From an uncultured Anaerolineaceae bacterium (GTDB lineage Bacteria; Chloroflexota; Limnocylindria; Limnocylindrales; CSP1-4), in the NCBI GenBank assembly GCA_964610835.1, contig CAZSWK010000001.1:23843-87842 (forward strand): a stretch of 64,000 nt of DNA, read 5' to 3'. Of the stretch, positions 7,857-40,562 are shown one piece after another (within the stretch, counting starts at the first letter, position 1; each line of letters opens with the position of its first letter). Position numbers and translations under genes: made by a program. Below the pieces are notes generated by a model. The model saw only the letters and a list, made by a program, of their open reading frames with translations, was not told the origin of the DNA and made no database searches.

Positions 7857-7927
7857 TCACATGCCGTCGTCGGGCAACTCTCATCGAGCTGTAATGAAGC
7901 CGGCCGATGATCGCCGGCGAGAACGAG

Positions 7928-20841: not shown

Positions 20842-20850
20842 CGGCATCGC

Positions 20851-20878
20851 TTGACAGATGCTTTACTGTGCCTAGACT
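20851..20878 (+). promoter_or_regulatory. sigma-70-type promoter candidate for the marR-ABC operon
   Basis: TTGACA (20851-20856) and TAGACT (20873-20878) are separated by 16 nt in a locally AT-richer spacer, 10 nt upstream of the marR start at 20888. Confidence 0.45.
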
Positions 20879-20887
20879 GCTCATGGC

Positions 20888-25145: not shown

Positions 25146-25153
25146 GTGCATGT

Positions 25154-25173
25154 GCGTTGCCAGCTGGCAACGC
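25154..25173 (+). terminator. perfect palindromic hairpin after the ABC operon
   Basis: 'gcgttgcc agct ggcaacgc' forms an 8-bp stem starting 9 nt after the stop. There is no U-tract. Confidence 0.4.
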
Positions 25174-25322
25174 TGCGCTGGTCACTCCCGGCCGATTGGG
25201 TGTAGTTTGGTGCCTCATGGGACAGTCGTGGTCCCTGAGTACAGCTGCACCGGAAGCGACCGGCCCCAGGACCCCAGCCTGTGACGGCGCGGCCGTTCCG
25301 AGTGCTGACATGGAGGTTTTGA

Positions 25323-26540
25323 ATGGCAGTTTCGTTTGGGGCGAGGCTGACACGCGTTGCCGTGGCGTGTTCAGTAGCCCTGCTTGGTGCACTCGTATTG
25401 AGTGCGCCGGTGGCGGCCCATGGCTTTGGCCACCACCGCATCTACGTTTCACCCAACGGCTCGGCGGACAACTCAGGCACCTCGTGCCGGCACGCGAAGT
25501 ATTCGTCGATCAATGACGGCATCGCGGCTGCGCCCAATCACGGCACCGTGATCGTATGCCGTGGGACGTACACCGAGACTGCCGCCGTTAACAAGTCGAT
25601 CACTCTCGAGGGCCATCACGCGGTCATCGACGCCACGGGCCTCAACAACGGCGTTCTGATCACCAGTTCGTGGGCCACGGTCGAGCGCCTGACGGTCAAG
25701 AATGCGATCGGTGAGGGCATCCTCGCCATGGGCACACCGGGCACGCCGGGCACCCCGATCACGCACGTGACCATCCAGCGCAACAAGGTGCTCAACAACG
25801 ACCAGGGTGGCCCCGACTCCGGCTACGCCGAGTGCGCGCCGTCCGGCGAGGTGCCGGGCGACTGCGGTGAAGGCATTCACCTGATGGTCGTCGCCAACTC
25901 GACCGTTCGGCAGAACGTCGTGCAGGGCAACTCGGGCGGCATCCTGCTGACCGATGAGTTCGGCCCCACGTATGGCAACAAGATCGTGCTCAACCTGATC
26001 CAGAACAACGCCTACGACTGCGGGATCACGCTCGCCGGCCACGGGCTGGGTTGGGATGTCGCCGGCCAGGCGACGTCACCGGCCACCGGTGGCGTCTACG
26101 ACAACCTGATCCGCGGTAACGTCGTGCGCCGCAACGGCCTGCTGGGCGAAGGTGCCGGCGTGCTCATGGCAGCGGCCTGGGAGGGCGCGGCAGTCTATGA
26201 CAACCACGTCGACCACAACTACATCATGGGCAACAACCTGGCCGGTGTGACCATTCACTCGCACCCGGCGTCAGCTACGAACCCGGTCGGTGGATACGTG
26301 GGCGGCAACATGATCACCCACAATCTCATTGGCCGGAACAACGTCGGTGGTGACCCCGACGCCGGCGTGTCCGACACGACCGGAATTCTCGTCTACTCGT
26401 CGGGTCAGGCGACCACCGTCACCATCAGCCACAACGTGATCTTCCGCAACCACTTCGGTATCTGGCTGAGTCCGACGACTGTCTCGGCCAGCATGAACCA
26501 CAACGTCTTCCTGCACGACGACATCAACGTCGGCCCCTGA
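25323..26540 (+). CDS. secreted right-handed parallel beta-helix repeat protein (NosD/pectate-lyase-like fold)
   Basis: A GGAGG RBS precedes the start. The signal peptide is 'VAVACSVALLGALVLSAPVAAHG'. Periodic 'N..G(I/V)' beta-helix rungs are present ('NNGVLIT','NSGGILLTD','NNAYDCGITLA','NLAGVTIHS','NHFGIWLS'). Confidence 0.7.
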   Translation: MAVSFGARLTRVAVACSVALLGALVLSAPVAAHGFGHHRIYVSPNGSADNSGTSCRHAKYSSINDGIAAAPNHGTVIVCRGTYTETAAVNKSITLEGHHAVIDATGLNNGVLITSSWATVERLTVKNAIGEGILAMGTPGTPGTPITHVTIQRNKVLNNDQGGPDSGYAECAPSGEVPGDCGEGIHLMVVANSTVRQNVVQGNSGGILLTDEFGPTYGNKIVLNLIQNNAYDCGITLAGHGLGWDVAGQATSPATGGVYDNLIRGNVVRRNGLLGEGAGVLMAAAWEGAAVYDNHVDHNYIMGNNLAGVTIHSHPASATNPVGGYVGGNMITHNLIGRNNVGGDPDAGVSDTTGILVYSSGQATTVTISHNVIFRNHFGIWLSPTTVSASMNHNVFLHDDINVGP

Positions 26541-26564
26541 CCGCATTTCGCGTTAGGTAACGAA

Positions 26565-26590
26565 ACCGGCCCCGGGCAACCGGGGCCGGT
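26565..26590. terminator. bidirectional terminator hairpin between convergent genes
   Basis: 'accggccccgg' (26565-26575) pairs with 'ccggggccggt' (26580-26590) across the loop GCAA. It is flanked by AAA on the 5' side and CTTTCT on the 3' side. It sits between the 25323..26540 (+) and 26595..27128 (-) genes. Confidence 0.65.
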
Positions 26591-26594
26591 CTTT

Positions 26595-27128
26595 CTATGC
26601 CCGGTCGGCGTCGTCGGCGCGAATGTGGCGCTCCAGGGCCAGGGCATCGTAGGAGCGGCCGGAATCGGCCTCCGGCCCTCGGTCCAGGAGTGTGAAACCG
26701 ATGCGCTCGTAGAAGCGCTGAGCGCCGTCGTTCACGTTCGTCACCCACAGCACGACGCGCCGCGCGCCCCACGACGCGCCCCAGTCCGCGACCGCCTGCA
26801 CGAGCGCACGGCCGACGCCCAGCCGGCGCACCTCGGGCGCCACCCACATCGAGAAGAGCAGGCAGTCGGCGGGCGGGCGTCGGCGCGCCTGGACCATGCC
26901 GACGGTCCTGGCGGGGCCGGCCGCGTCGCGGTCCAGCGCCAGGAAGTACGCCCGTGCATTGCCGCGTGCCGAGGCGCGCGCCACTGCCGTCCAGTCGCCG
27001 GGTGGCTCGTTGATGGCGTCCTCGTAGCGCGTGCCGAAGGCGTACGGCGCCTCGCGCAGCGCGCGCAGGCGGACGTCGCGCAATGCGTCGCCCTGGTCGG
27101 GGCTGATGCGTTCAATCGAGATCGCCAC
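26595..27128 (-). CDS. GNAT family N-acetyltransferase
   Basis: 'MWVAPEVRRLGVGRALVQAVADWGASWGARRVVLWVTNVNDGAQRFYERIGF' is the acetyl-CoA binding motif A region. Confidence 0.82.
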   Translation of the reverse strand: MAISIERISPDQGDALRDVRLRALREAPYAFGTRYEDAINEPPGDWTAVARASARGNARAYFLALDRDAAGPARTVGMVQARRRPPADCLLFSMWVAPEVRRLGVGRALVQAVADWGASWGARRVVLWVTNVNDGAQRFYERIGFTLLDRGPEADSGRSYDALALERHIRADDADRA

Positions 27129-27212
27129 GTCGCCTCACCGCGGCAGCGTAGCGGGCAGGCGCCAACGATGCGGCGGAGAATTGGTGGCCATGGCCAGCGA
27201 CTGCGCGAACCG

Positions 27213-28640
27213 ATGAACGAGTCGCGAGCCGTGGTCGTCGGCAGCGGGCCGAACGGCCTCGCCGCGGCGATCATGCTGGCCGAGGCAGGCGTGTCGGTCA
27301 CCGTGCTAGAAGCGGAGCCGGAGATCGGCGGCGGGGCGCGTTCGGCAGAGCTGACCCTGCCGGGCTTCGTGAACGACGTGTGCAGCGCCATTTACCCGTT
27401 CGGACGGAACTCGCCTTTCTTCGCGCCGCGCCAGTCCGATCTGGAACGTCACGGACTGCGTTGGGTGGAACCGCGCTACGCGATCGGTCACCCGCTCGAC
27501 GGGGAACCCGCCGTGATCGTGGAGCGCGACGTTGCGCTCACGGCTGCGCAGCTCGGCGCTGACAAGCGCGCGTACCGGTCGCTCATCGGGGCGCTCGTCG
27601 ACGATTGGCCGGCCCTGATGCCCGAGATACTCGCGCCGCTCCACGTTCCCTTGCGGCCGCCCGCCGCACTGCGGCTGGCCCGCTTCGGCTTGACCGCACT
27701 GCAGTCGGCGCGCTCTGTCGCACGACGCTTCACGACGAAGCGGGCGCGTGCGCTGTGGGCGGGCGCGGCGGCGCACTCGATGCTGCCACTCGGGCGATCG
27801 GTCAGCGCCGCGGCCGGCCTGCTGATGCTGGCCAGTGCACACGCCGATGGATGGCCGCTACCGGTTGGCGGCGCGGGTGCCTTGACCGCCGCGCTGGGCG
27901 AACGGCTGCAGGCCCTCGGCGGCCGTATCGAGACGGGCCGCAACATTACCGACTACGGCGAGTTGCCGGAGCACGACGTGGCGCTGTTCGACGTCATGCC
28001 CGGCGCGCTGGCGGCCATCTGCGCCGAGCAGTTGCCGGCTTCGTATCGGCGAAAGCTGCAGGGGTATCGCCACGGCCCCGCGGTGTTCAAGCTCGACATG
28101 GCCATCGAGGGGGCCATCCCGTGGCGCGACGAGCACCTGCTTGCGGCAGGAACGGTGCACGTGGGCGGCACCCTCGAGGAGATCGCCGCGTCCGAGGCGA
28201 CCGTCGCGGCCGGGCGCGTTTCGGAGAGGCCGTTCGTGCTCCTCGCCCAGCAGAGCCTGTTCGACCCGTCACGGGCGCCCGCGGGGCACAACACCGTATG
28301 GGCCTACTGCCACGTGCCGAACGGCTCGGCGGCCGACATGAGTGACGCGATCATCGGCCAGGTCGAGCGCTTCGCACCCGGCTTCCGCGAGCACATCCTG
28401 TCGCTCACGGCCAGCGACCCGGCACAGATCGAGCGCCATAACGCCAACTACGTGGGCGGGGACATCGGCGGCGGGAGCCTCGAGGTCGGCCAGCTATTCG
28501 ACCGGCCGGCGCGACCGTGGGACCCGTACTCGACTCCTGATCAGGCGATCTACCTGTGCTCGAGCGCCACGCCGCCGGGAGCAGGAGTGCACGGCATGTG
28601 CGGGCTGCACGCCGCGCGTTCTGTCCTGCCCCGCCTCTAG
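27213..28640 (+). CDS. NAD(P)/FAD-dependent oxidoreductase (phytoene desaturase/CrtI-like family)
   Basis: The ATG at 27213 lies inside the longer ORF 26625..28640. The dinucleotide-binding motif is 'AVVVGSGPNGLAAAIMLAEAGVSVTVLEAEPEIGGGARS'. The C-terminus 'YLCSSATPPGAGVHGMCG' is typical of this family. Confidence 0.8.
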   Translation: MNESRAVVVGSGPNGLAAAIMLAEAGVSVTVLEAEPEIGGGARSAELTLPGFVNDVCSAIYPFGRNSPFFAPRQSDLERHGLRWVEPRYAIGHPLDGEPAVIVERDVALTAAQLGADKRAYRSLIGALVDDWPALMPEILAPLHVPLRPPAALRLARFGLTALQSARSVARRFTTKRARALWAGAAAHSMLPLGRSVSAAAGLLMLASAHADGWPLPVGGAGALTAALGERLQALGGRIETGRNITDYGELPEHDVALFDVMPGALAAICAEQLPASYRRKLQGYRHGPAVFKLDMAIEGAIPWRDEHLLAAGTVHVGGTLEEIAASEATVAAGRVSERPFVLLAQQSLFDPSRAPAGHNTVWAYCHVPNGSAADMSDAIIGQVERFAPGFREHILSLTASDPAQIERHNANYVGGDIGGGSLEVGQLFDRPARPWDPYSTPDQAIYLCSSATPPGAGVHGMCGLHAARSVLPRL

Positions 28641-28717
28641 CACCGGCGCGAGCAGCCGCGCCGCCGTTGCTCCCGCGTGTAGGCGGCGCGCTGGACGGCG
28701 CGGCCATAATCGGACGC

Positions 28718-31700
28718 ATGGTGAGCCGCGGGGAGGGCGCGGTGCTCGTCGGGCGATCGGCGGAGCTCGCACAGCTCAGGGCCGCCATTTCAGCGGCTGA
28801 AGGCGGTTTGTTCCAGTTCGTGCTCATCAGCGGCGAGACCGGCGTCGGCAAGACGCGCCTGGTCCGAGAGACGATGCGCCTGGCCAGGGAGCGCGGTTTC
28901 AGTCGGCTATCGGGGCGCGGGATCGACCTCGTGGGTCCCGGTCTGCCGTATGGCCCGCTGGTCGAGGCCCTGCGACCACTGGCGGCGCCGATCGCGGGCG
29001 ATGCAGCCGATCCCGTGCGAGCGCGCATAGCGAAGGCCGCGCGGCACGTCTTCCGCGGGCTGCGGGGCGGCGCTCGGCCGCTCGGGCATGACCAGGCCGT
29101 TGCCTTCGAGCGTTTCGCGAACCTCCTCGAGGTCATCGCGGCAGGGTCGCCGCTGGTGCTCGCGGTCGACGATCTCCAGTGGGCCGATCGCTCGACTATC
29201 GATGTGCTGGGGTACCTCGTGCAGGCGCTTTCGTCGCTCGATCCAATCGAGCCAGCGCGGCCCACCCGGCGGATACTGCTCATCGCCGCGATCCGGGAGG
29301 AGGAGCTCGAGTCGCGGTCAGTTCTGCGGCTGCTCGCCAACGCTGCCCGCCTGCCCCAGGCGAGCATCATCGAGCTCGGCCCGCTGAGCCGCGATGATCA
29401 CGCCGCCCTGCTGCAGGCGATCCTGGGCCAGGCAGTTGGCCAGGAGCAACTCGAGCGCGTGTACGAGCGTTCGCGCGGCAATCCGTTTCTCGCCGAGCAG
29501 CTCTTCGCCGGTGGGGCCCCTTCGCCGGTTCTGCCGCGCGGCCTGCGCGACGTACTGCTCGCCCAGTTCGCGTTGCTGTCGCCAGCGGCCCAGCGCGTGG
29601 CCGAAATCGTGTCGGCGGCTCAACGGATCGATCACCAGACGCTCGCTCGCGTGGCTGGCATACCCGAGCCCGCCTTGCTCGATGCTGTGCGCGAGGCGAT
29701 GGAGCGCTCGATCCTGGCGGCCGAGCCGGCAACGGCGCGTTACACCTTCCACCACCCGCTCCTCGCCGAAGTGGTCTACGAGAACCTCATTCCCGGAGAG
29801 CGGATGAAGCTCCACGGGGAGCTGGCCAGCGCGCTGAGCCTGGCTCATTCGGCCGATCGCGCGACGGCCGCACAGGTGGCGGCAGAGATCGCCGAGCATT
29901 GGCTGAAGGCGGGCCAGGAGGCCCGGGCGATGCCGGCGCTGATCCGCGCCGGGCGAGCCGCCAGCCGGCTCGGCGCCCACGCCGAGGCACTGACCCACTT
30001 CCGGCGCGCGCTGGAGCAATCGTCGGGGGCGCACCACGGACGCGCCGGGTCAGGCACGATGCAGCTGCTGGCGTCCGCCGCCGCCGCCGCAGAGGGCAGC
30101 GGTGAGCTCGACGAGGCGGCCGGTTACTGGGAGCGCGCCATCCGTCTGGCGGAACGCCGGTCGGACGCTGGCCAGCTGGCCGGCCTGCGCGGTCACCTGG
30201 CGGACTGCCGCATGTTGGGCGGGGACCTGCCGGCGGCAATGGACGGCTGGCAACAGGCGCTCGAGGCGGTCGCGCTCGACGCGCCTTCCGTTCGTGCGCG
30301 GCTCATGGCCAAGTTGGCCGGCGGACAGATCATCCTTGGCCAGCTGAGCGATGCGCAACGCTCGGCGCAGGCGGCGATCGAGGTCGCCGGGCGCATCGGT
30401 GCCGCACCGGAGGAAGGGTTGGCCCGTGGCTCGCTGGGCGCCGCGTTGGCCATGCAGGGCCGCGCCGCGGCCGGGGTGGAGCACCTGCGCAGGTCGCTGA
30501 CCGTGGCGATCCACCAGCGCGCGATAGAGGACGAGGCCATCGCCAGATCGAACCTGGCGGAGGCGCTGCATTTCAGCGGTCAACTGGTTGAGGCGATCGA
30601 GGTCCTCGACGAGGGCATCACGCGCGTTCACCGGGCCGGGCTCGACCGTACCTATGGAGGCACGATGACCGCCACGGCTGCTTACCTGGTGTTCGTAGCC
30701 GGGCGCTGGGATGAGGCCATGCGGCGCTGCCACAGCGGGCTGGCGCGGTTGCCGCAGGGAATTGCCGCGGCGTGGCTGTACCTGGTGCAGGGCGAGGTGC
30801 TGACTGAGCGTGGCCAGTTCGACGAGGCCGCCGAATCGATCGCCACCGCGGCGGCACTCAGTCCGGGGGACCGGGTGACCGGCTGGGATGGTCCGCATGA
30901 GCAGCTGGCCACGCTGGCGATCCATCGTGGACGACCGCGCGAGGCACTCCGTCTCGTGCGCCAGGCGCTGGGGCTGCTGAGCGGCGGCGAGCTGACCAGC
31001 AAGCAGCGCTTCCTTGTCGCGCTGGGTCTCCGGGCTGCGGCGAATGTGGCCCAGGAATCGGGTTCGGCACCCGATGTTCATGGCCGCGATGAGGCCCGGG
31101 CGGTGGCGCGGGACCTGATTGCCCGCTTGCGCGATCACGCTCGCGCCATCGCCGGCGACGCCGATCCACACCTGGCCGCCGAACTCCCGCTGGCGGAAGC
31201 CGAGTACCGGCGCTGCCTGGGTGACGACGATCCCGAGCGCTGGGCCGCCGTGGCCGCCGCCTGGGACACGCTTCAGCACCCGCTCGACCTGTGCTACGGC
31301 AAGGTGCGCCGGGCCGAAGCGCTCCTGCGCCACGCCAGCCGCCGCAGCGTCCGCCAGGATGTTGCCCGCGAGCTCGAGGAGGCATGGGCGATAGCCGCCG
31401 CGCTGGGCGCACGGCCCGCGACGCAGCGCATCGAGGAAATCGCGCGGCGCGGCAGGATCGTGCTGTCTGCCAGGGAGGGGCGGCCGCTGGAGAGGCGCGC
31501 GCTGCCGGGCGATCCGCGCGGTTTGACGCCACGTGAGCAACAGGTGCTCCGCCTGCTGCTCGACGGTCGGACCGACCGCGAGATAGCCGATCAGCTGTTC
31601 ATCGCCGAGAAGACGGCGTCGGTTCATGTCTCCAACATCAAGGCGAAGTTCGCGGCCGCGTCGCGCACGGAGGTTGCCGTGCGGGCACTGCAGCTCGGGT

Positions 31701-31720
31701 ATGCCACCGATCACAGCTAA
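28718..31720 (+). CDS. large ATP-binding LuxR-family regulator (AAA/STAND NTPase, TPR-like helical repeats, LuxR HTH)
   Basis: The ATG is at 28718. Walker A is 'ISGETGVGKTRL' and Walker B is 'LVLAVDDLQWAD'. A long Ala/Leu-rich helical repeat region follows. The C-terminus 'LTPREQQVLRLLLDGRTDREIADQLFIAEKTASVHVSNIKAKF' is a LuxR/GerE HTH. Confidence 0.85.
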   Translation: MVSRGEGAVLVGRSAELAQLRAAISAAEGGLFQFVLISGETGVGKTRLVRETMRLARERGFSRLSGRGIDLVGPGLPYGPLVEALRPLAAPIAGDAADPVRARIAKAARHVFRGLRGGARPLGHDQAVAFERFANLLEVIAAGSPLVLAVDDLQWADRSTIDVLGYLVQALSSLDPIEPARPTRRILLIAAIREEELESRSVLRLLANAARLPQASIIELGPLSRDDHAALLQAILGQAVGQEQLERVYERSRGNPFLAEQLFAGGAPSPVLPRGLRDVLLAQFALLSPAAQRVAEIVSAAQRIDHQTLARVAGIPEPALLDAVREAMERSILAAEPATARYTFHHPLLAEVVYENLIPGERMKLHGELASALSLAHSADRATAAQVAAEIAEHWLKAGQEARAMPALIRAGRAASRLGAHAEALTHFRRALEQSSGAHHGRAGSGTMQLLASAAAAAEGSGELDEAAGYWERAIRLAERRSDAGQLAGLRGHLADCRMLGGDLPAAMDGWQQALEAVALDAPSVRARLMAKLAGGQIILGQLSDAQRSAQAAIEVAGRIGAAPEEGLARGSLGAALAMQGRAAAGVEHLRRSLTVAIHQRAIEDEAIARSNLAEALHFSGQLVEAIEVLDEGITRVHRAGLDRTYGGTMTATAAYLVFVAGRWDEAMRRCHSGLARLPQGIAAAWLYLVQGEVLTERGQFDEAAESIATAAALSPGDRVTGWDGPHEQLATLAIHRGRPREALRLVRQALGLLSGGELTSKQRFLVALGLRAAANVAQESGSAPDVHGRDEARAVARDLIARLRDHARAIAGDADPHLAAELPLAEAEYRRCLGDDDPERWAAVAAAWDTLQHPLDLCYGKVRRAEALLRHASRRSVRQDVARELEEAWAIAAALGARPATQRIEEIARRGRIVLSAREGRPLERRALPGDPRGLTPREQQVLRLLLDGRTDREIADQLFIAEKTASVHVSNIKAKFAAASRTEVAVRALQLGYATDHS

Positions 31721-31759
31721 CCCTTAGAACGCCTCTCCGGGACTAAGGAAACTGCCGAT

Positions 31760-32191
31760 GTGCGCCGCCAGCGGCGTGGCGATCCTTGTGACATGGGACG
31801 TGCACAGGCACCGCTGACCTTTGGCGTCAGGTCGGTTGCCCGGAGCTTCATCGTCGCGATCGATGGAACCGACACGGGCGGAGCACGCGCCTTCGGTGCC
31901 GAGCTGCGCCGGGCCGAGGGCGAGCTTCGCGCGAGCTGTGCCCGGATGGGCGTGGATCGCCTGTGGTGGTCGCTGGTGCCGGCCAACGGTGGACAGTGGC
32001 TCGTCGCCGGCCTCGAAGGCGGCAGCGATGCCGACCCGCTGCGCCGCCTGGCGGTCTCGGTCCACCCCTTCGACCTGTGGCTCAAGGAGCGCTGGGCTGA
32101 GCTGTCCGGGAGTGAACTGGGCCTCGACGCCGCCATACCGGTTGGCGAGCTCCTCGCCGACGTAGACCTCAGGGGGAGGACCTCATCGTGA
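31760..32191 (+). CDS. hypothetical protein (possibly a small alpha+beta/Dabb-like fold)
   Basis: An AAGGA RBS lies 9 nt before the GTG at 31760. The gene starts 39 nt after the LuxR regulator, and its stop overlaps the next gene's start. The pattern 'FIVAIDG...ARAFGAELRRAEGELRASCARMGVDRLWWSLVP...QWLVAGLEG...HPFDLWLKERW' resembles small ferredoxin-like proteins. The family assignment is tentative. Confidence 0.5.
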   Translation: MRRQRRGDPCDMGRAQAPLTFGVRSVARSFIVAIDGTDTGGARAFGAELRRAEGELRASCARMGVDRLWWSLVPANGGQWLVAGLEGGSDADPLRRLAVSVHPFDLWLKERWAELSGSELGLDAAIPVGELLADVDLRGRTSS

Positions 32192-32724
32192 AGATCACCC
32201 GACGCTTCATTCTGGTGCTGTTGGTGCTGAGCATCGCGGTGACCGCCTGCAGCACGTCCTCGCCCAGCGAGGGTGGTGGCCCGTCCGCGGCCCCGGCTTC
32301 GGTGGCCGCCGACGCGACGCCAGGAACAGATCTGACGGCGTGCGAGCTCGTCGTCGGATCGGACATCGAGGCCGCCCTGGGCCTAGACGGCGGAACTGTC
32401 GGAGAGGGCGACGTGAGGCCGGTAGACCACAGCCATGACGCGGCGGCCAGCGAGTGCCAGTGGTCGTCCGATTGGGGCTGGCTGTCCGTGGGCGTGACGC
32501 CAACCATCGGTGGTACTGCGTTCGCCGACTCGGCAGAGCAGCTGGGCGATCGCGCCGAGGCATTGGACATCGGCGATGGCTCGCTGTGGGTGGACGACAT
32601 TGGCCGCGGCTACTTCCACAAGGGCTCGGTCCTCATCATCGTTCAGTTCCTGACGCTCCACGGTGATCGGACACCGCGAGAGCCGACCATCGCGCTCGGT
32701 ACCGCGGCAATCAATCGGTTGTAG
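32188..32724 (+). CDS. lipoprotein, DUF3558-like
   Basis: A GGGGGAGGA RBS precedes the start. The signal/lipobox is 'LVLLVLSIAVTAC'. The pattern 'LTACELVVGSDIEAALGL...ASECQWS' is the two-cysteine signature seen in actinobacterial DUF3558 lipoproteins. Confidence 0.7.
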   Translation: MKITRRFILVLLVLSIAVTACSTSSPSEGGGPSAAPASVAADATPGTDLTACELVVGSDIEAALGLDGGTVGEGDVRPVDHSHDAAASECQWSSDWGWLSVGVTPTIGGTAFADSAEQLGDRAEALDIGDGSLWVDDIGRGYFHKGSVLIIVQFLTLHGDRTPREPTIALGTAAINRL

Positions 32725-32732
32725 GCGCTGCA

Positions 32733-34952
32733 ATGACTTCGACTTCCCCGACTCGCTTCCTCGCCACGGCTGCTGTCGTACTTGCGCTCATTGGCGGCTG
32801 CAGTGCTCCGAGTGAGACGGTCGTACCGTCGCAACCTGGTACAGGCCGGAGCGCGGCGCCCGCAGCCACGGCTGCCGCCAGCGCTCTCGCCGATCGCCCG
32901 GAGGTCCCACGGATCGATGCCTGCAAGCTGCTCACCGATGACGAAGTCGAGGCGGGCCTGGGCCTGCTGGACATTGAGTGGGTCGATCGCATCGTCATCA
33001 CCCAGGGCGGCGGCGAGGCGTGCACCTGGACGTTCGTCGGCACGGACAATGTCCAGCCCGCCGGCCAGGTGCTCCAGATCGGGCCGGGTGAGCCCGCTGA
33101 CTTCGAGCAGGGTGCGACGCTGGACGGCCAGGCCGGCAGCGCTGTCTCTCTGGCCAGAGGTGCTGCGGTCTGGTTCCCGGGATCCGATGGCGGCGTCCTC
33201 AGTGTGGGCCAGCAGAACGACCTGGGCTATCTCTTCTACCGCGTCGGTGTCACGCGACCCGACATCGACGACGCCGTGCGCCTGGCAGTGGCCACCGACC
33301 TGGCCGTCGCGGCGCTACCACGCTTCCCCGGCATGAGCGGGACGGGCTCACAGCCTGAGGTGGTCACTTTTGACCGTGAGCCGCCCGACACCTCCAACCT
33401 GAGCTACGCCGACAACCTCCTCGCGCGCGAGCGGGCCGGCTACTGGACCCTGGGCCTGGGGCTGGTCAGGACGCTCCAGCTCCTTGCCGGCGAGGTCGAT
33501 GCGGCAAGCGTCCTGAGCGACCCGGACATCCTCGATCCGTCGAGCGCCGACGTCATTGCCATGGCGCGTCAATACGTGGTCGATGGCCCCGACGCGAACG
33601 CGCGCGACGAGGTCGCCGCCCTGCTCGACAGGCTCACCTTCACGGACCAGGAGCTCGAGGAGATGAGCGCCGGGGCGCAGCCGATAGTGCTGCCGGCCAA
33701 ACTTGCCGGGTCGCGAACCGGTAGCCCCAGGCGCTTCGCCGATCCATGCACCGACATCGGCAAGACGATTCCGTGCGTGAGGCCGTACGAGCCCGCGTTG
33801 CTCACTGATCTGAACAAGCAGTGGCCCAAGACGACGTACGAGATGGATGTCATGGTCACTGCCGTTGATGCCTGGGGCGGACCGAAACTGTACGCAGCCG
33901 CGGAGGCCCTGCGCGATGCGGCGGACAGGTTCGAGGCACTCGGCAGCATGCCGGCCACGGTGGATCTCCTGGCCACGCCGTTCGACACCAACCGGAGCGT
34001 GGTCTGGAGCGAGGCCGGCCAGTGTTCGATCAACTTGAACCGCCCCCTGCTGCAGATGGCCGATGCGCAGATGAAGCAGTGGATTGCGGCCGATCTCGCC
34101 GACTGCTTCATTGCCGCCACCTTCCCCACGCAGGCCGCCGGTTCCTCAACGTCGAAGAGTTGGTGGCGACGCGCGCTGGCTCTCTACCTCAGCAACGTTG
34201 TCTACAACGCGCCGCAGTGCGATTTCGGGAAAGGCCTCCAGCGCTGCGACCTCGAATGGGCTTTCGCCGACACGTTTGCGAGCCAGGAGTTGACCACCAA
34301 CCTGGTCCAGCGGACGGAGGCCAACTGGCTCCTTTTCCAGCACCTGGAGAAGACCGAGGGTGTCGGCGGGATACTCAACCTGATCAGGAGGTTGCCCGGA
34401 GGTGACGCGACTGCGCCACAAGTGCTGGCACTCATTGGCTACGAGCCCATGGCCGGGTTGTTCCACGACTTTGGCAAGAGCGTCAGCGACAACGCCGTCA
34501 TGGACACCGGCGGCGGGAACCTGCAGTACGCGTACACACCCGCGAAGGACGACCTGGTGCTGACGTGCTCTACCGAAGATGATGAGCGGCCCGGGCCATT
34601 CGAGACGGTCCGGCTGCAGCTTTCTGTCTCGGGCGGCAAGTCCGCGAAGCTCGCTTACACGCGCAGCGGCGACCTCCAGGTCAGCTGGCGGCCGGGTACG
34701 GCGGGCGCAAACGGGGTGACCGGTGGCTGGTCCGACGAGCTGCCGGAGTCACTGTCGGGCGACGCCGTCATGGTCATTTCCACCACCGAGCCTGGTGCGA
34801 GCTTCAACCTCCGTGTGACCGATCTCAGCCCGAGCTGCAACCCGACGCCGCGGCCGAGCACCTCGATCTGCCCGTTCTGCGGCTTCTCCAACTTCTTCCA
34901 GTTCGCCGATGTCGTCTCCGACTACGTCCAGCGGATCGTGAACGGCGGCTGA
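32733..34952 (+). CDS. large lipoprotein: DUF3558-like N-terminal module plus a ~550-aa uncharacterised domain
   Basis: The lipobox is 'VLALIGGCS'. The N-terminal module 'IDACKLLTDDEVEAGLGL...GEACTWTF' is paralogous to the upstream gene. I recognise no family for the remainder. Third-position codon bias supports coding throughout. Confidence 0.7.
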   Translation: MTSTSPTRFLATAAVVLALIGGCSAPSETVVPSQPGTGRSAAPAATAAASALADRPEVPRIDACKLLTDDEVEAGLGLLDIEWVDRIVITQGGGEACTWTFVGTDNVQPAGQVLQIGPGEPADFEQGATLDGQAGSAVSLARGAAVWFPGSDGGVLSVGQQNDLGYLFYRVGVTRPDIDDAVRLAVATDLAVAALPRFPGMSGTGSQPEVVTFDREPPDTSNLSYADNLLARERAGYWTLGLGLVRTLQLLAGEVDAASVLSDPDILDPSSADVIAMARQYVVDGPDANARDEVAALLDRLTFTDQELEEMSAGAQPIVLPAKLAGSRTGSPRRFADPCTDIGKTIPCVRPYEPALLTDLNKQWPKTTYEMDVMVTAVDAWGGPKLYAAAEALRDAADRFEALGSMPATVDLLATPFDTNRSVVWSEAGQCSINLNRPLLQMADAQMKQWIAADLADCFIAATFPTQAAGSSTSKSWWRRALALYLSNVVYNAPQCDFGKGLQRCDLEWAFADTFASQELTTNLVQRTEANWLLFQHLEKTEGVGGILNLIRRLPGGDATAPQVLALIGYEPMAGLFHDFGKSVSDNAVMDTGGGNLQYAYTPAKDDLVLTCSTEDDERPGPFETVRLQLSVSGGKSAKLAYTRSGDLQVSWRPGTAGANGVTGGWSDELPESLSGDAVMVISTTEPGASFNLRVTDLSPSCNPTPRPSTSICPFCGFSNFFQFADVVSDYVQRIVNGG

Positions 34953-34990
34953 AAAGGGTCGATCGGGCAGCAGCTCGTTGCCGCGAGCGC

Positions 34991-35791
34991 CTACATGCGC
35001 AGGCGCTCGCTCAGCCTGAGCTCGAGCTCATCGGAGAGTGTCCGGGCAACCTGGGTGGCGAAGCGGTCGGCCATGCGTGCGAAGAACGGGCGCGGCAGGC
35101 GTGCGACCCCGGCCTTCGGAGCCACGCCGGCCATCTTGGCCGCGACTTCGATCGCGTGCTGCAGGTCACCGACCTCGTCGACGAGACCCAAGGCGACCGC
35201 CTGGCGGCCCAGCCACACCTCGCCGGTCGCCAGCGAGCGCGCTTTCCGCGGAGTTAGCTTGCGTGCGTTTGCCACGCGCTCGACGAATGCGTCGTAGACC
35301 TGGTCGACGAGCTGCTGCTCCTTGGCTGCCTCCGGCTCTGACTCGGTCCGCCAGGGGGCGCCCATGCCCTTGAGCGTGCCGGCGGTGTGCTCGCTGACGG
35401 CGATCCCCAGCCGCTCCAGCAGCGCCGGCACGCGCGGCGCCACGTTGATCACGCCGATCGAACCCACGACAGAGGTCGGCGCCGCGACGATGCGCCGGGT
35501 GGCGATTGCGGCGAGATAGGCGCCCGACGCACCCGTGCCGGTGATCGCCGCGACGACCGGCTTGGTCGCCGAGAGGCGCTCGAGTGCCATGAACATGTTG
35601 TCGGAGGCCGCCGCCGAGCCGCCCGGCGAGTCGACGTCGATGACCACTGCCGGTACGCGATTGTTTTCGCGCAACCGGCGAACGAGCTCGAGCCACTCGG
35701 CGTTGCGAGCGCCTCCGGCGATCGGGCCGTAAAGCCGAATGATGGCCACGCGGCCGGCGCGAAAGCGACGCGAAAAGCCGAGCAGCCCCAT
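34991..35791 (-). CDS. sppA: signal peptide peptidase SppA (S49 family, 36K type)
   Basis: 'VAIIRLYGPI...VVIDVDSPGGSAAASDNMFMAL...KPVVAAITGTGASGAYLAA' is the S49 core with the catalytic Ser in 'GASGAY'. The start at 35791 is chosen to avoid overlapping xthA. Confidence 0.85.
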   Translation of the reverse strand: MGLLGFSRRFRAGRVAIIRLYGPIAGGARNAEWLELVRRLRENNRVPAVVIDVDSPGGSAAASDNMFMALERLSATKPVVAAITGTGASGAYLAAIATRRIVAAPTSVVGSIGVINVAPRVPALLERLGIAVSEHTAGTLKGMGAPWRTESEPEAAKEQQLVDQVYDAFVERVANARKLTPRKARSLATGEVWLGRQAVALGLVDEVGDLQHAIEVAAKMAGVAPKAGVARLPRPFFARMADRFATQVARTLSDELELRLSERLRM

Positions 35792-35825
35792 CAATGAACG
35801 CGCCACGAGCGCGCCTCCTTTCCGG

Positions 35826-36755
35826 TCAGCGCCGCGTGCGCGCGGCGATGCGTTTGAGTGCCTCCTCCCAGCCCGCATCGAGCGGCGCGCCGGGGGTGTC
35901 GAGGTCGATCAGCAACGGCGCGTGATCCGATGGCACCGGTTGGCCCTTGCGCGCCTCGCGGTCGATCTCGGCCCAGATCACACGCTCGGCGACGGGCGGC
36001 GTGACCAGCAGATGGTCGATGCGCATGCCGAGGTTCTTATGAAAGTTGCCGGCGCGGTAGTCCCACCAGCTGAAGCGCTGCGGTTCGGGCCGCTGCGCCC
36101 GATAGGCGTCCACGAGACCCCACGCGAGCAGGGCGGCGAACGCCTCCCGCTCGGGCGCGGACACGTGCGTGCCGCCGTGCGCCTGGGCCTCGTTCCACAC
36201 GTCGATGGGCTGGGGGGCCACGTTCATGTCGCCGCCCAGGACGAGCGGTTCGGCAGGCTGAGTCTTGTCGGCCAGCCAGCGCCGCAGTCGCTCGTACCAC
36301 TCCAGCTTGCCGGTGTAGAAGGGCGATCCCACCTCGCGGCCGTTGGGCGCGTAAAGGCAGACAAAGCGGATGCCGCCGACCAGCGCGCTGACCATACGCG
36401 CCTCATCGAAGGGATCGAAGTCCTCCTCGGCGGAGCTGGTGTCTGCGCCGGCGGCGCTGTTGCGCACCGGGCCGTCGCCGAAGTTGGTCACGATGCTCGC
36501 GGGATCGACCGCCAAACGACTGGCGATGGCCACGCCGTTCCAGCGGCCCTCGCCGTGGTGGATGAGTTCGTAGCCGCGCATCTGGAAGGGGAGGAAAGGC
36601 GCATCGTCATCGGCAAGCTTGGTCTCCTGCATGAGCAGGACGTCGGGCTGGCCGCGCTCCAACCAGTCGAGCACGCGGTCCATGCGCGCCTTGAGCGAGT
36701 TGACATTCCAGGTGGCGATACGCACCCGACGATTATCGGCGACTGCCACAGACAC
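35826..36755 (-). CDS. xthA: exodeoxyribonuclease III
   Basis: 'RIATWNVNSLKARMDRVLDWLERGQPDVLLMQETKL' and 'WDYRAGNFHKNLGMRIDHLLV...SDHAPLLIDL' are EEP-family ExoIII motifs. Confidence 0.9.
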   Translation of the reverse strand: MSVAVADNRRVRIATWNVNSLKARMDRVLDWLERGQPDVLLMQETKLADDDAPFLPFQMRGYELIHHGEGRWNGVAIASRLAVDPASIVTNFGDGPVRNSAAGADTSSAEEDFDPFDEARMVSALVGGIRFVCLYAPNGREVGSPFYTGKLEWYERLRRWLADKTQPAEPLVLGGDMNVAPQPIDVWNEAQAHGGTHVSAPEREAFAALLAWGLVDAYRAQRPEPQRFSWWDYRAGNFHKNLGMRIDHLLVTPPVAERVIWAEIDREARKGQPVPSDHAPLLIDLDTPGAPLDAGWEEALKRIAARTRR

Positions 36756-36793
36756 GCCACCCGCGCCTGCCCTGGTGGGGTAACAATGGCGTC

Positions 36794-37312
36794 GTGAACC
36801 CAGCCGACTCGGGGTATCCCGGCGAGATCCGCTTCCGCCGCCCGGTCGAGGGCGATCACGCGCGGCTGATCGGCACTGTCGACGCGTGGTGGGGTGGCCG
36901 TCCGCTGCACCACCTGCTGCACCGGCTGTGGTTCCAGCATTTCACGTCGACCTCGTGGCTGGCTGAGCGGGCCGACGGGACGCCGGCCGGCTTCCTCATT
37001 GGTCTTGTCAGCCAGGACGACTCAAGCGAGGCATACGTGCACATGGTTGCGGCCGACCCCGGACTGCGGCGCAGCGGCATCGGCCGCGAGCTGTACCGGC
37101 GCTTCCTGGCAGACGTCCGTGCCCGCGGCGTGCGACGGGTCACGGCGGTCACGTGGGCCGGCAACCGGGCGTCGATTGCCTTCCACACCGCGCTCGGCTT
37201 CGTGCTCGACGACGGCCCGGGCACGCTGCGCCTCGACGGAACGCCGGCCTATCCCGACTACGAGGGTGACGGGCGGGCCATCGCCGTGATGCGTCTTCCG
37301 CTCCAGGACTGA
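36794..37312 (+). CDS. GNAT family N-acetyltransferase
   Basis: 'VHMVAADPGLRRSGIGRELYRRFLADVRARGVRRVTAVTWAGNRASIAFHTALGF' is the motif A region. Confidence 0.75.
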   Translation: MNPADSGYPGEIRFRRPVEGDHARLIGTVDAWWGGRPLHHLLHRLWFQHFTSTSWLAERADGTPAGFLIGLVSQDDSSEAYVHMVAADPGLRRSGIGRELYRRFLADVRARGVRRVTAVTWAGNRASIAFHTALGFVLDDGPGTLRLDGTPAYPDYEGDGRAIAVMRLPLQD

Positions 37313-37345
37313 GGCTACCGCGAGCGGCTGTGAGCCGCGTGGCCG

Positions 37346-37834
37346 TCAGGCGAGCGGCGACCAGATCGAGGCCACGGCGACGACCACCAGCACCGCGTCG
37401 ATGACCAGGCCGAGGAGCAGCGTCGGGCCGAAGAACAGGCCCAGCAGGACGGCCGATAAGATGGCGCCGAGCACCACCAGCGCCGCCCAGGCGGCCGCCG
37501 GGACGAGCACGGGAATGGTCGCCAGCGCGGCAAGGGCGTAGATGACCATGGTCAGCGCCACGAGCGTGATGCCCAGCGGTCGCAGGCCGCCGCGATCGCC
37601 GAGCAGCCAGGAATGCTCGAGTCGGAACGGGTAGGCGAAGCCACCGGCCGGGACAGCCTGGCGCGCGGGACTGGGCATGACGTAGGCGATGTGCACCCAG
37701 CCGTGGCCGAACAGGAAGGCCGCGAACAGCCAGTTGCCGAGCTGGTTGTCGAGCGAGAGCAGGTATCCGATCAACGCGCCGAGCAGCGCGACGACGATCG
37801 CGAGCGGTCCGATCGCTCTGGCCAAAGCGAACAT
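37346..37834 (-). CDS. hypothetical integral membrane protein (~4 TM segments)
   Basis: The ATG at 37834 opens into 'MFALARAIGPLAIVVALLGALIGYLL', which is followed by three more hydrophobic segments. The upstream part of the ORF is Arg-rich and unlikely to be coding. Confidence 0.6.
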   Translation of the reverse strand: MFALARAIGPLAIVVALLGALIGYLLSLDNQLGNWLFAAFLFGHGWVHIAYVMPSPARQAVPAGGFAYPFRLEHSWLLGDRGGLRPLGITLVALTMVIYALAALATIPVLVPAAAWAALVVLGAILSAVLLGLFFGPTLLLGLVIDAVLVVVAVASIWSPLA

Positions 37835-37979
37835 CGCGTCACCTCCAGACGCGATCGTCGTCAGCCGCGCGCAAACGTGCGACTGCCATCCGGCGCTGGG
37901 CGAACCTGCCATCCGGCAGGTTCGCCTGCGAGGCACGTCGCCCGCGCCAGGCAAACGGCCCTCGCGCTATCGTTCGCCC

Positions 37980-39209
37980 ATGACCGCGACATACCGCTTT
38001 CCCGGCGCCGTCACAACCGAGCGCGAGCACACCGTGCCGCTCGACCACGCCAATCCGGCCGGTCCCGCCATCAGCGTTTTCACGCGCGAAGTGGCCGTGC
38101 CCGGCGGCGAAGACCGACCGTATCTGGTCTTCCTGCAGGGCGGGCCGGGCATGGAGGCCACCCGGCCGACCAGCCCGCCTTCGGGCTGGCTGAAGCGGGC
38201 CCTGGAGGACTACCGCGTGCTGCTGCTCGACCAGCGCGGCACGGGGCGCTCAACGCCGGTTGGGGCCCAGATACCCGGCGACACGGCGCAGGCGCAGGCC
38301 GACTACCTGAAGCATTTCCGTGCAGATTCGATCGTGCGCGATGCCGAGTTGATTCGCCAGGAGCTGGGCGTCGAGCGCTGGAGCATCCTGGGCCAGAGCT
38401 TCGGTGGCTTCACTTCTATCGCCTACCTGTCGATCGCACCAGCCGGCCTGCGGGAAGCGATGCTGACCGGTGGGCTGACGCCGGTCGGCCGGCCGGTCGA
38501 CGAGGTCTACAGCGCAACCTGGCAGCGCGCGATCCAGAAGAACCAGGAATACTTCGCCCGTTACCCGGAGGATCGCGAGCGGACGCGCCAGATCCTCGAT
38601 CGGCTCGACGCTGATGACGTGCGCCTGCCCAACGGGGATCGGCTGACCTCGCGCCGCTTCCGCCAGCTGGGCATGTGGCTGGGTGCCAGTGACGGTTTCG
38701 AGAAGCTGCACCACGTGCTGGAGCTGCCATTCGGCTCAAACTCCTTCCTGTACGACGCCCAGGCCGGTGCGTCGGGCTGGGAGCGCAACCCCATCTACGC
38801 GACGATGCACGAGTCCTCCTACGCCGACGGCGTGGCGACGCGCTGGTCGGCGGCGCGCACCATGCCGGCGCAGGTTGAGGAGCAGCGCTACTTCACTGCC
38901 GAGCATGTCTTCCCGTGGATGTGGGAGGACTATGCCGGCCTGCGGCCGCAGCGCGAGGTCGCGAACATCCTGGCCGAGTACGAGTGGCCGAAGCTCTATG
39001 ACGCGGAGGTTCTGCGCCACAACGAAGTCCCGGTGGCGGCGACGATCTATGCGTACGACCTGTACGTCGAGCGACAATTCGCCGAGGAGACTGCAGCGCT
39101 GGTGCGCGGTCTGCGGCCGTGGCTGACGAACGAGTACGAGCACAATGGCCTGCGTTTCGGCGACGAGGTCCTGGGGCGGCTGATCGACATGGTCAAGGGT
39201 CGCGCCTAG
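37980..39209 (+). CDS. alpha/beta hydrolase, proline iminopeptidase (S33) family
   Basis: The ATG is at 37980. 'YLVFLQGGPGMEA', 'VLLLDQRGTGRSTP' and the nucleophile elbow 'ILGQSFGGF' are present. The length is 409 aa. Confidence 0.8.
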   Translation: MTATYRFPGAVTTEREHTVPLDHANPAGPAISVFTREVAVPGGEDRPYLVFLQGGPGMEATRPTSPPSGWLKRALEDYRVLLLDQRGTGRSTPVGAQIPGDTAQAQADYLKHFRADSIVRDAELIRQELGVERWSILGQSFGGFTSIAYLSIAPAGLREAMLTGGLTPVGRPVDEVYSATWQRAIQKNQEYFARYPEDRERTRQILDRLDADDVRLPNGDRLTSRRFRQLGMWLGASDGFEKLHHVLELPFGSNSFLYDAQAGASGWERNPIYATMHESSYADGVATRWSAARTMPAQVEEQRYFTAEHVFPWMWEDYAGLRPQREVANILAEYEWPKLYDAEVLRHNEVPVAATIYAYDLYVERQFAEETAALVRGLRPWLTNEYEHNGLRFGDEVLGRLIDMVKGRA

Positions 39210-39519
39210 TCACCGTTCGCTGTGCCAACCGCTCGGCATCGGCTCCAGGTCCGTCTGCCTGGGTCATCGCTGAGTCGTTGATGCGCACCGGGGATCGAGA
39301 TTGGCGATTGCCTGAATGGACGTGGTCCCCAATTGCCGTGGGCACGGAAGTCACCCGCACGAACCGCTGCTGAGCGATGCGGCACGTGCATCAGCGTTCG
39401 TCGGGGCGGTGCCCCGACGTGGACGCTCAGGTAACCTGTCTCGAGTCATGACCATTCCGCTCGGCGGACGGGCGTTGAACGCCTGGTTCGCCACGATCAC
39501 GCGCCAGAACGGCTGATCG

Positions 39520-39614
39520 GCCCCTTCCCAAGACTGCGTCGGAGGAAGGGGCGAGACATGACGCAGGCTGCCGCCACGCCGGTCGGGCGTGCGCGCCGCG
39601 TCGTCTCGCCGTAG
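39520..39614 (+). promoter_or_regulatory. structured leader with an 18-codon uORF upstream of the GTPase gene
   Basis: Stem A pairs 'gccccttcc' (39520-28) with 'ggaaggggc' (39544-52), covering the SD GGAGGAAGGGG. The uORF runs from ATG 39558 to TAG 39612-14 (MTQAAATPVGRARRVVSP). Stem B pairs 'ggcgagac' (39550-57) with 'gtctcgcc' (39603-10). Stem B overlaps stem A by 3 nt, so they may be alternative structures. Confidence 0.4.
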
Positions 39615-39629
39615 CGCGAGGAGTTGGTC

Positions 39630-40562
39630 ATGCCGATGCCGCACAGGACTTTCGCCCAGCTGGCGAAACGCCGCCTGACAGGCACCGAGGGCAAGGAAAG
39701 AATCCGGGTGGTGCGCGAGTTGCTCGCCCAGCTGCCCGACTACCGCAACGGGCCTTACGCGGACCTGCGCAAATGGCTGACGTCGGAGATCGAGGACACG
39801 CGCGTTCGCGCGCGGGCGGTGCATCGCGACTCGATCGCTGTGCGCCGCGAGGGTGCCGCCCAGATCGTCCTCGTGGGGCCGCCCAACGTGGGCAAGTCCT
39901 CGCTGCTGCAGGCACTCTCCGAGATCCAGATCAAGACCGGCGACTACCCGTTCACCACGCTGCGGCCGGTGCCGGCGCTGACGCGCATCGGCGGCGTGCT
40001 GGTGCAGCTGGTCGAGATCCCGGGGCTGATCGAGGGTGCGGCCGACGATCGTGGCGGCGGCCGGGCGCTGCTGGGCGTGCTGCGCGGCGCCGACGGCATC
40101 GCCTACTGCATGCGTGCGGCCGGCGATCCGGCCGACCTGCGGGCGGTGCAGGCGGAAATAGGGCGTGCCGGCATCGAACTGCCGGCCTTCGTCGCGGCCA
40201 CGCGTGCCGATGAGGCCACCGACCAGGACTTCGAACGCCTGCGGCACACCTTCCGCGATCTCGACGTGGTGCCCGTCTCAGTGCTCGACGACGCCTCGCT
40301 CGATGCCTTTCGCGAGCATGTCTGGCGGCTCACCGGCCTGATTCGCGTTTACCTTCACAGCAACGGCGCCGTCGAGGAAACGCCGCTGGCCCTGCCACCG
40401 CCGGCGACGGTGAGCGACGTGGCCGACGCGGTTCACCATGAGCTGGCGGAGACGTTCGTTGGTGCTCGCCTGTGGGGGCCGTCGGCGCGTTTCGAGGGCC
40501 AGCGGGTGGGCCGGACGCAGACGGTCCAGGACGGCGACGTGGTCGAGATAATCGGCCCATGA
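39630..40562 (+). CDS. OBG-HflX-like GTPase of the DRG/Rbg type with a C-terminal TGS domain
   Basis: A GAGGAG RBS lies 6 nt before the ATG at 39630. G1 is 'VLVGPPNVGKSSLL', G2 is 'YPFTTL' and G3 is 'VEIPGLIEGA'. The C-terminus 'VGRTQTVQDGDVVEII' is TGS-like. Confidence 0.85.
   Translation: MPMPHRTFAQLAKRRLTGTEGKERIRVVRELLAQLPDYRNGPYADLRKWLTSEIEDTRVRARAVHRDSIAVRREGAAQIVLVGPPNVGKSSLLQALSEIQIKTGDYPFTTLRPVPALTRIGGVLVQLVEIPGLIEGAADDRGGGRALLGVLRGADGIAYCMRAAGDPADLRAVQAEIGRAGIELPAFVAATRADEATDQDFERLRHTFRDLDVVPVSVLDDASLDAFREHVWRLTGLIRVYLHSNGAVEETPLALPPPATVSDVADAVHHELAETFVGARLWGPSARFEGQRVGRTQTVQDGDVVEIIGP

Follow-up and report, generated by a model that had tools for sequence, protein, structure and literature searches.

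The question raised by the locus described here is whether four neighbouring genes, encoding a large transcriptional regulator, a small protein and two lipoproteins, form one indivisible signal-activated module, as a preliminary description of this DNA had proposed, or an assembly of parts with histories of their own. The genes occupy positions 28718-34952 of a 64,000-nt window (the whole stretch analysed, from contig CAZSWK010000001.1 of assembly GCA_964610835.1, an uncultured Anaerolineaceae bacterium of the Chloroflexota order Limnocylindrales). The answer that we favour, with a little more confidence than doubt, is that the locus is a horizontally acquired composite operon of two modules, with an activator-driven promoter and a dead-protease surface protein.

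All four genes lie on the forward strand. The first, in an open reading frame of 28556-31720 with its likely start at ATG 28718, encodes the regulator, of the LAL/MalT type; the second, which in its longest form runs from GTG 31760 to 32191 (143 aa), encodes the small protein; the third (32188-32724) encodes a 178-aa lipoprotein, and the fourth (whole, 32733-34952) a 739-aa membrane-anchored pseudo-metallopeptidase. A convergent gene for an S49 peptidase, sppA (34991-35878, reverse strand; Peptidase_S49 E 4.8e-42), lies 38 nt from the block. The layout first read from the sequence, with spacings of 39 nt (31720/31760), a 4-nt GTGA overlap (32188-32191) and 8 nt (32724/32733), two lipoboxes ('AVTAC' and 'LIGGC'), no internal terminator hairpin and sppA at the block's end, was borne out. 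A terminator scan found no terminator-like site in the four-gene block and the RNA of the spacers folds no better than shuffled sequence (z-scores -0.6 to +0.9), on which grounds a riboswitch, attenuator or terminator in the spacers was rejected. What has changed is the start of the small gene, which is reassigned to ATG 31793 (31793-32191, 132 aa) and leaves a spacer of 72 nt behind the regulator; the GTG start is unlikely because homology, a 132-aa gene call in the metagenome contig L071 and the promoter geometry described below all favour the ATG.

That the block is a discrete unit can be seen from its surroundings. Window positions 20388-28494 and 34959-42480 align collinearly with the same-genus genome G161, the 6.4 kb between them do not, and in their place G161 carries a TPM-domain gene and a PspA gene; the block is thus exactly what differs between collinear flanks. 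The same four-gene order recurs in three other places, namely L071 (87% DNA identity, with a TPM gene after the block) and the genomes G045 (L003/L075) and G135 (L076), which belong to one genus in a different family of the same class. All four genes occur together only in the window's lineage and in that genus; a profile of the 739-aa protein found no match in the two same-genus genomes searched, and no close homologue of the small protein was found in seven. In identity to the cross-family copies the regulator (77%) and the small protein (78%) stand high, ahead of the 178-aa protein (56%) and the 739-aa protein (44%); the baseline, set by the S49 peptidase, is 81% within the genus and 60% to the other family. 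Because the block is absent from same-genus genomes and sits between conserved flanks, and its two cytoplasmic proteins exceed the sppA baseline in cross-family identity, the evidence points to its entry into the lineage by horizontal transfer, between an FAD-oxidoreductase gene and the TPM gene. Relatives carry TPM-domain and PspA/IM30 genes between the locus and sppA (L017 (G161) 7636-10811; L071 4030-4889), neither gene stands in window positions 34953-34990, and no PspA homologue was found in the 90%-complete assembly; as read from these sequences, the window's genome appears to have lost both genes later.

The four genes are all under purifying selection, with unequal histories. Compared with L071, the ratio of nonsynonymous to synonymous substitution rates (dN/dS) is 0.065-0.215 across all four genes. 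The synonymous rate (dS) of the first three genes lies at 0.6-0.85 and that of the 739-aa gene at 0.195, and nucleotide identity to L071 steps from ~78% to ~94% near 32750 (~32700-32800), at the start of the 739-aa gene; the low dS and this step together indicate that the 739-aa gene was exchanged recently and by itself. Both surface proteins are far more diverged from their cross-family counterparts than the two cytoplasmic ones are. Two further observations touch the edges of the unit. In L010 (G174:C21, 1272-1779) a fragment of the regulator (residues 44-129, 71% identity) abuts a fragment of the 739-aa protein (residues 666-739), which looks like what a deletion has left of the unit in a further genome of the donor genus, or possibly like a mis-assembly. 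Furthermore, L075 (from 3717) and L076 (from 3780) share a collinear stretch of 14.4 kb (89% identity) that opens ~150 nt ahead of the regulator, and they have no homology before that point, so that the break in synteny falls exactly at the unit's upstream edge.

The composite nature of the block emerges when its parts are followed one by one. The families of the small protein and the 739-aa protein had looked far rarer than they are because the first search used a word index, which returned only 2 relatives of the former and 7 of the latter. When 401 genomes of the class were searched in all six frames, dozens of them proved to encode distant homologues of the small protein (30-43% identity), and from these a sample of 16 paralogous loci was fetched. 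In every one of the 16 a LAL homologue stands directly upstream of the small-protein homologue, no lipoprotein homologue of either the 178-aa or the 739-aa type is present, and the gene after the pair is usually convergent, for example an ELFV dehydrogenase gene. One genome, G045, holds both such a paralogous pair (L059) and the four-gene unit. Relatives of the 739-aa and 178-aa proteins, for their part, are mostly found in unrelated contexts without this regulator, and meet again in L074, at 50% and 43% identity. Given the fact that each part occurs apart from the other, the conserved cores are the LAL regulator with its small protein and, more loosely, the DUF3558-like lipoprotein with the 739-aa protein. 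The idea of a self-contained, signal-activated four-gene module therefore stands as far as it describes a discrete unit, and gives way where it implied that the unit cannot be divided.

The same separability feeds the alternative that fares best, namely that the regulator and its small partner are self-contained, with targets elsewhere, and that the lipoprotein genes came to lie behind them by chance, with no functional tie to the regulator, and owe their expression to read-through or to constitutive transcription. In none of the 16 paralogous loci is the pair followed by a gene in the same direction, both lipoprotein families live in unrelated contexts, and the 739-aa gene has a recombination history of its own (dS 0.195 against 0.6-0.85, with its breakpoint near 32750). 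An incidental adjacency is, however, hard to square with the 4-nt overlap between the small gene's stop and the lipoprotein start, which leaves no room for a promoter, with a gene order kept at protein identities of about 45-78% and through transfer between families, or with the lack of TAAGG direct-repeat sites, the candidate operator described below, elsewhere in the window's own genome. We regard it as unlikely.

What ties the regulator to its neighbours on the composite reading is a strongly conserved promoter-like element of fixed geometry in the regulator-to-small-gene spacer, present in 20 loci; its positions are counted from the assigned start codon of the small gene. In the window it comprises an inverted pair CCTTAG-N15-CTAAGG (31722-31748), of which CCTTAG (31722-31727) is distal and CTAAGG (31743-31748) is the promoter-proximal TAAGG box at about -50, a conserved block AAACTGCCGATGTGCGCC (31749-31766) as candidate -35 region, which is invariant in the window, L071, L075 and L076, and a -10-like hexamer GATCCT (31781-31786) at -12 to -7 from ATG 31793. 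In the alignment these invariant blocks stand within spacers that are otherwise diverged. The proximal box starts at -49 to -51 in the window, in L071 and in 15 of the 16 paralogous loci, and in L075 and L076 it is equally distant from a GTG start; in 13 of the 16 paralogues a distal box precedes it by 22 bp. The equivalent of the -35 region in the 16 paralogous loci is, at about -41 to -30, a TGCC(C)RATGYGC block, and a hexamer of the form xAxxxT starts at -12 to -14 in all 18 loci with an assigned start, in sequences that vary from locus to locus (GATCAT, GACCAT, CAGACT, GATCCT and others). The inverted box pair occurs once in the 64-kb window and in none of 100 shuffles, and among the fetched loci once in each copy of the unit and nowhere else, just as the direct-repeat form of the TAAGG boxes is confined to these spacers among all fetched loci. 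A search of the window's own genome for further CTAAGG direct repeats, as other genomic targets, found none. The spacer is ~700 nt long in one paralogous locus, L053 (G156:C14), where it contains two sets of TAAGG boxes, apart from each other, as well as an extra small open reading frame bearing a lipobox-like signal.

We infer from this layout an activator-dependent promoter that would start a leaderless mRNA at the small gene's start codon. The geometry is the one that such an mRNA would call for, with the boxes near -50 and -72 as activator boxes that would be centred near -47 and -69, and the LAL protein is their likely binder by analogy with MalT, whose boxes are repeated, asymmetric (direct-repeat) sites. 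The translation signals divide the block in two: neither the regulator gene nor the small gene has a Shine-Dalgarno sequence, and each shows a -10-like hexamer positioned for a leaderless start; both lipoprotein genes are preceded by Shine-Dalgarno sequences (a strong one, GGGGGAGGA, upstream of the 178-aa gene, whose GTG start overlaps the small gene's stop) and have no space for a promoter ahead of them. A second start codon in the spacer had to be considered. The conserved ATG 31758, within the -35 block and with AAGGAA 8 nt upstream, opens a 19-codon out-of-frame reading frame (31758-31817) that overlaps the small gene's start; the equivalent ATG is likewise out of frame in L071, and in L075 and L076 one extra base puts it in frame with the small protein. 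As the true start of the small gene, reached by a frameshift, it was rejected, since no slippery site is there to bring its frame into line with that of the small protein in the window and L071; it is treated as part of the -35-region block.

Since a conserved promoter-like element precedes the small gene, the regulator is probably transcribed apart from the three genes downstream. This bears directly on the arrangement first proposed, in which one transcript from upstream of the regulator would carry an indivisible signal-activated module and the regulator would autoregulate the whole operon. The common strand of all four genes, the lack of any terminator-like site or significant hairpin after the regulator, and the integrity of the block, which has moved and been retained whole in four genomes, are all as a single transcript would have them. 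Set against these are the promoter-like element of fixed geometry in 20 loci, the contrast between leaderless-type hexamers for the first two genes and Shine-Dalgarno sequences for the lipoprotein genes, and the occurrence of the pair without the lipoproteins and of the lipoproteins without the pair, which together make the single-transcript arrangement quite improbable in our estimation.

The regulator of the first module (28718-31720, 1000 aa) is a genuine LAL/STAND-LuxR protein, as had been read from its translation, with a match of residues 64-227 to AAA_16 (Pfam, E 2.3e-26), legible Walker A (GETGVGKT) and Walker B (LAVDDLQWAD) motifs, a middle part in which TPR_2, TPR_12 and TPR_1 exceed their cut-offs and TPR_MalT is weak (27.4 bits against 45), and a C-terminal GerE/LuxR helix-turn-helix (PF00196, E 2.1e-17, 62.9 bits against a cut-off of 23.5). 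Its orthologue in G045, at 77% identity, begins at the equivalent methionine, and its paralogues in L050-L065 are 37-39% identical over their full length. A -10-like hexamer CATAAT (28705-28710, forward strand) ends 7 nt before the start codon, and the block that contains it, CGCTGGACG.CGCGGCCATAATCG.AC.CATG, is conserved with L075 within surroundings that are not; judging by these signals, the regulator is probably made from a leaderless promoter of its own, CATAAT-N7-ATG. The possibility of a defence island or an anti-phage STAND system (Avs and similar) was rejected, as PADLOC gave nothing specific: the regulator drew only generic helix-turn-helix and TPR matches from its models, and the other three proteins drew no match at all.

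The small protein (132 aa), predicted to be cytoplasmic, has no signal peptide and no Pfam match, DUF6176 (PF19673) included. A distant likeness to that family is seen through its relatives, since homologues without a linked regulator match DUF6176 weakly (at most 22.8 bits, E 9.1e-5, with a cut-off of 27), and a literature search on DUF6176 found nothing. The AlphaFold2 (AF2) model has a mean predicted local distance difference test score (pLDDT) of 69 on a 25-sequence alignment and shows a beta-alpha-alpha-beta-beta-alpha-alpha core, for which a fold search of the PDB gave mostly dimeric ferredoxin-like proteins at E 0.35 or worse, which is not significant. The gene is the most constrained of the four, with a dN/dS of 0.065, and its product is 78% identical to the copies in both G045 and G135.

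The second module includes the 739-aa protein, to which, as to the other two products, the preliminary description could assign no activity. That statement was too strong, as the protein belongs to a family of gluzincin metallopeptidases and is a catalytically dead member of it. Full HMMER searches (phmmer) found 430 relatives among cluster representatives, 132 of them with E below 1e-30, in a family that spans Chloroflexota and Actinomycetota. In an alignment of 154 relatives, 56 carry HExxH and the third-ligand Glu, 85 are degenerate and 13 do not cover the site; the 56, in line with a share of about 40% of the relatives, have in common a gluzincin signature xxAHExxHC[FL] followed by W(R/W)EEGLAEYLSN. 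The window's protein matches one HExxH-bearing relative, P0010, with a phmmer E of 2.9e-115. At the aligned positions, however, its zinc-binding and catalytic motif is replaced by AADLAD (helix WIAADLADCF at 34080-34109, where relatives have xxAHExxHCF) and EEGLAEY by RRALALY (third-ligand helix WWRRALALYLSN at 34161-34196), so that all four canonical positions are altered (H to A, E to D, H to D, and third-ligand E to R). Degenerate members hold nearly any residue at the ligand positions and keep the adjacent Cys and the fold-defining residues fixed, a pattern that fits relaxed constraint at the site rather than a new conserved site.

The gluzincin-like core itself (M1/DUF6055-like; residues ~349-590, 33777-34502) has no Pfam match of its own, and a sequence search of the family against the PDB gave no match even at E 10. 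Relatives that keep HExxH match DUF6055 at 28-34 bits (maximum 34.4), above the cut-off of 27, with weak matches to Peptidase_M1, DUF2268 and M9. The AF2 model of the whole protein has a pLDDT of 65, the core being its best-predicted part (70-94), and the best fold match in the PDB is the M1 aminopeptidase N 5dll (E 5.7e-3, probability 0.96, 377 columns). Because fold-search E-values are weak, the assignment draws mainly on homology to the HExxH-keeping relatives. Following the core is a beta-sandwich (residues ~600-700, 34530-34832) found in nearly all family members, whose fold matches (collagenase PPC/collagen-binding domain, CUB and the C-terminal domain of a clostridial enterotoxin; probability 0.9-1.0, E ~1e-2) mark it as PPC-like, and then a conserved Cys-rich tail C-x10-C-x2-C-G-x-S-x-[FY]-[FY] (34836-34898). 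In the tail C702, C713, C716 and S719 are invariant in alignment A1 and widely conserved in the family; a disulfide knot, a metal site or a sorting signal are candidates for its role.

In a maximum-likelihood tree of 116 full-length members the window's protein falls in a clade of 15, all degenerate (Shimodaira-Hasegawa-like approximate likelihood ratio test, SH-aLRT, 99), which is nested among HExxH-bearing clades, and a second large degenerate clade in the same tree implies at least two independent losses of the catalytic site. A DUF3558-like N-terminal domain is commoner in degenerate members (69/85) than in HExxH-bearing ones (20/56); five relatives of ~900-915 aa (P0010, P0018, P0021, P0024 and P0027) carry two such domains in tandem, visible in alignment A1 as an insertion and in the phmmer matches as a pair of aligned stretches. 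The dN/dS of the 739-aa gene against L071, 0.196 over 739 codons, indicates that the gene is maintained and not decaying. By these sequence criteria, the protein is a pseudo-peptidase, a catalytically dead gluzincin relative under purifying selection. Its role, we infer, is binding and not cleavage, with peptide, protein or envelope components as ligands and the protein serving as adaptor, receptor or decoy. That it is still an active hydrolase through a non-canonical site, such as D454 with D457, or through another pocket, is most improbable. In favour of this are the Asp residues that stand where the catalytic Glu and the second His would be, the invariance of the fold, of the disulfide cysteines and of many further residues, and a dN/dS near 0.2; against it, all four canonical positions are changed and nearly any residue occupies them across the 85 degenerate members.

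The other lipoprotein is joined to the 739-aa protein by more than adjacency. The paralogous N-terminal module that the two had been thought to share is confirmed by BLASTP (E 4e-7) and by profile-profile comparison (hhalign probability 96%, E 2.3e-9, 133 columns), and in the 739-aa protein it covers residues ~56-198 (32898-33326). Both copies match DUF3558 (PF12079) below its cut-off of 34.1 bits, the 178-aa protein at 21.9 bits (E 1.9e-4) and the N-terminus of the 739-aa protein at 25.5 bits (E 1.5e-5); among 33 homologues of the 178-aa protein, several at 45-55% identity carry a precomputed PF12079 annotation. The VTAC lipobox of the 178-aa protein, with its Cys21, is invariant in 16 homologues, the 739-aa protein has an IGGC lipobox at Cys23, and the genome encodes the processing enzymes Lgt (176.7 bits) and LspA (94.5 bits). 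The lipoboxes, the conserved Cys pairs and the presence of Lgt and LspA all speak for an extracytoplasmic location of both proteins, which would be anchored on the membrane's outer face. In many homologues of the 739-aa protein the lipobox Cys gives way to a signal anchor without Cys. Elsewhere, a relative of the 178-aa protein directly follows an NMT1-type ABC transporter operon (L067/L068, 3981-7585) and a relative of the 739-aa protein also does so (L004, 4754-10037), which could mean a recurring association or orthology of the loci.

Taken together, the composite reading suggests the following course of events. The first module would consist of the LAL regulator and its small cytoplasmic partner. 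A cytoplasmic signal would switch on the NTPase/TPR part of the regulator, whose activated LuxR domain would then bind both TAAGG boxes of the 72-nt spacer (about -50 and -72) and so turn on GATCCT-N6-ATG, a weak leaderless promoter. Transcription from it would take in the small gene and, in this lineage alone, the translationally coupled pair of lipoprotein genes behind it. These would make up the second module, the 178-aa DUF3558-like lipoprotein and the 739-aa protein with its DUF3558-like domain, gluzincin-fold core and PPC-like beta-sandwich, the latter binding rather than cleaving at the cell surface, as adaptor, receptor or decoy.

Several points weigh against this scenario and temper our confidence in it. 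The baseline for horizontal transfer is one housekeeping protein, and the 90%-complete assembly in 152 contigs is the sole basis for the junctions of the block. As far as the promoter is concerned, a factor other than the LAL protein may bind the candidate TAAGG boxes, the distal box is inverted in the window-type unit, its spacing differs by 1 nt between copies, and a promoter scan called no sigma-70 consensus promoter; co-transcription and leaderless starts are predictions from the sequence. For the 739-aa protein, the AF2 model is moderate (pLDDT 65) and the fold-search E-values, at best 5.7e-3, are weak. Finally, because the lipoprotein genes occur elsewhere without this regulator, their linkage to this one could be incidental.

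The composite scenario can also be carried further. In this bolder form an unrecognised LAL subfamily, with its own TAAGG-box leaderless logic, would have in the small DUF6176-like protein its obligate co-sensor or anti-activator, and the circuit would have been captured in this lineage to switch on a dead-zinc-protease surface receptor or decoy. We offer this as a speculation with little weight behind it. The 739-aa gene has passed between lineages without its neighbours, which would suit a part in antagonistic interactions; if so, the 739-aa protein might bind or neutralise an external protease, a peptide toxin or a phage protein, rather than serve in housekeeping.

How the locus relates to known systems can be told part by part. 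LAL/MalT-type regulators are common, yet for most of them, apart from those of E. coli and Streptomyces, neither signals nor direct targets have been established. With their prototype, MalT of E. coli, the window's regulator shares the same ~1000-aa architecture of a STAND/AAA_16 NTPase, a helical/TPR arm and a C-terminal LuxR/GerE helix-turn-helix, and its candidate sites, like MalT boxes, are short, asymmetric and repeated upstream of a weak promoter. It differs in that the NCBIfam MalT model covers only its helix-turn-helix (27.7 bits against a 537-bit cut-off), in that its clade is, in the fetched loci, always paired with a small DUF6176-like protein, and in that the TAAGG box sequence and the leaderless layout are particular to that clade. 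We know of no small partner of this kind for MalT or for the LAL regulators of Streptomyces. A LAL clade with a fixed partner and a candidate operator and promoter offers a possible direct link between regulator and target in an uncultured Chloroflexota class.

The 178-aa protein resembles the DUF3558 lipoproteins of Actinomycetes in size (~180 aa), in its lipobox and in the Cys pair C-x-L-[LV]…C-x-[WY], and it differs from them in that its host is a member of Chloroflexota, its score lies below the Pfam cut-off and one copy of the domain is fused to a pseudo-peptidase. DUF3558 has been found enriched in the SigM/ESX-4 regulon of Mycobacterium abscessus, with no function reported (PMC13491425). 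In the examined part of the window (25.3-39.2 kb) no ESX, WXG100 or PE/PPE gene was identified, and DUF3558-like domains are met here outside the Actinomycetes and outside an ESX setting.

Among the gluzincins (clan MA; DUF6055, Peptidase_M1/aminopeptidase N and DUF2268), the 739-aa protein is related by homology to proteins of the HExxHC…WxEEGLAEY type, and with secreted proteases of the collagenase type it shares a PPC-like C-terminal domain. It departs from the gluzincins in lacking both His residues, the catalytic Glu and the third-ligand Glu, and in adding a DUF3558-like N-terminal domain and a lipobox. Catalytically dead peptidase homologues that act as activators or binders include the degenerate LytM-domain proteins EnvC and NlpD. 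By analogy these are alike to the 739-aa protein in a fold kept under purifying selection, in the loss of the metal ligands and in their place in the envelope. EnvC and NlpD are of the M23 type and the 739-aa protein has the gluzincin fold; any likeness would be one of function only. With its at least two losses of the catalytic site, the 739-aa family is a natural system in which to ask what bacterial pseudo-proteases do. The value of the present analysis lies in annotation and in the generation of hypotheses, leaving the current understanding of these families in place: the locus is not a new kind of system and joins parts of known kinds in a lineage-specific form.

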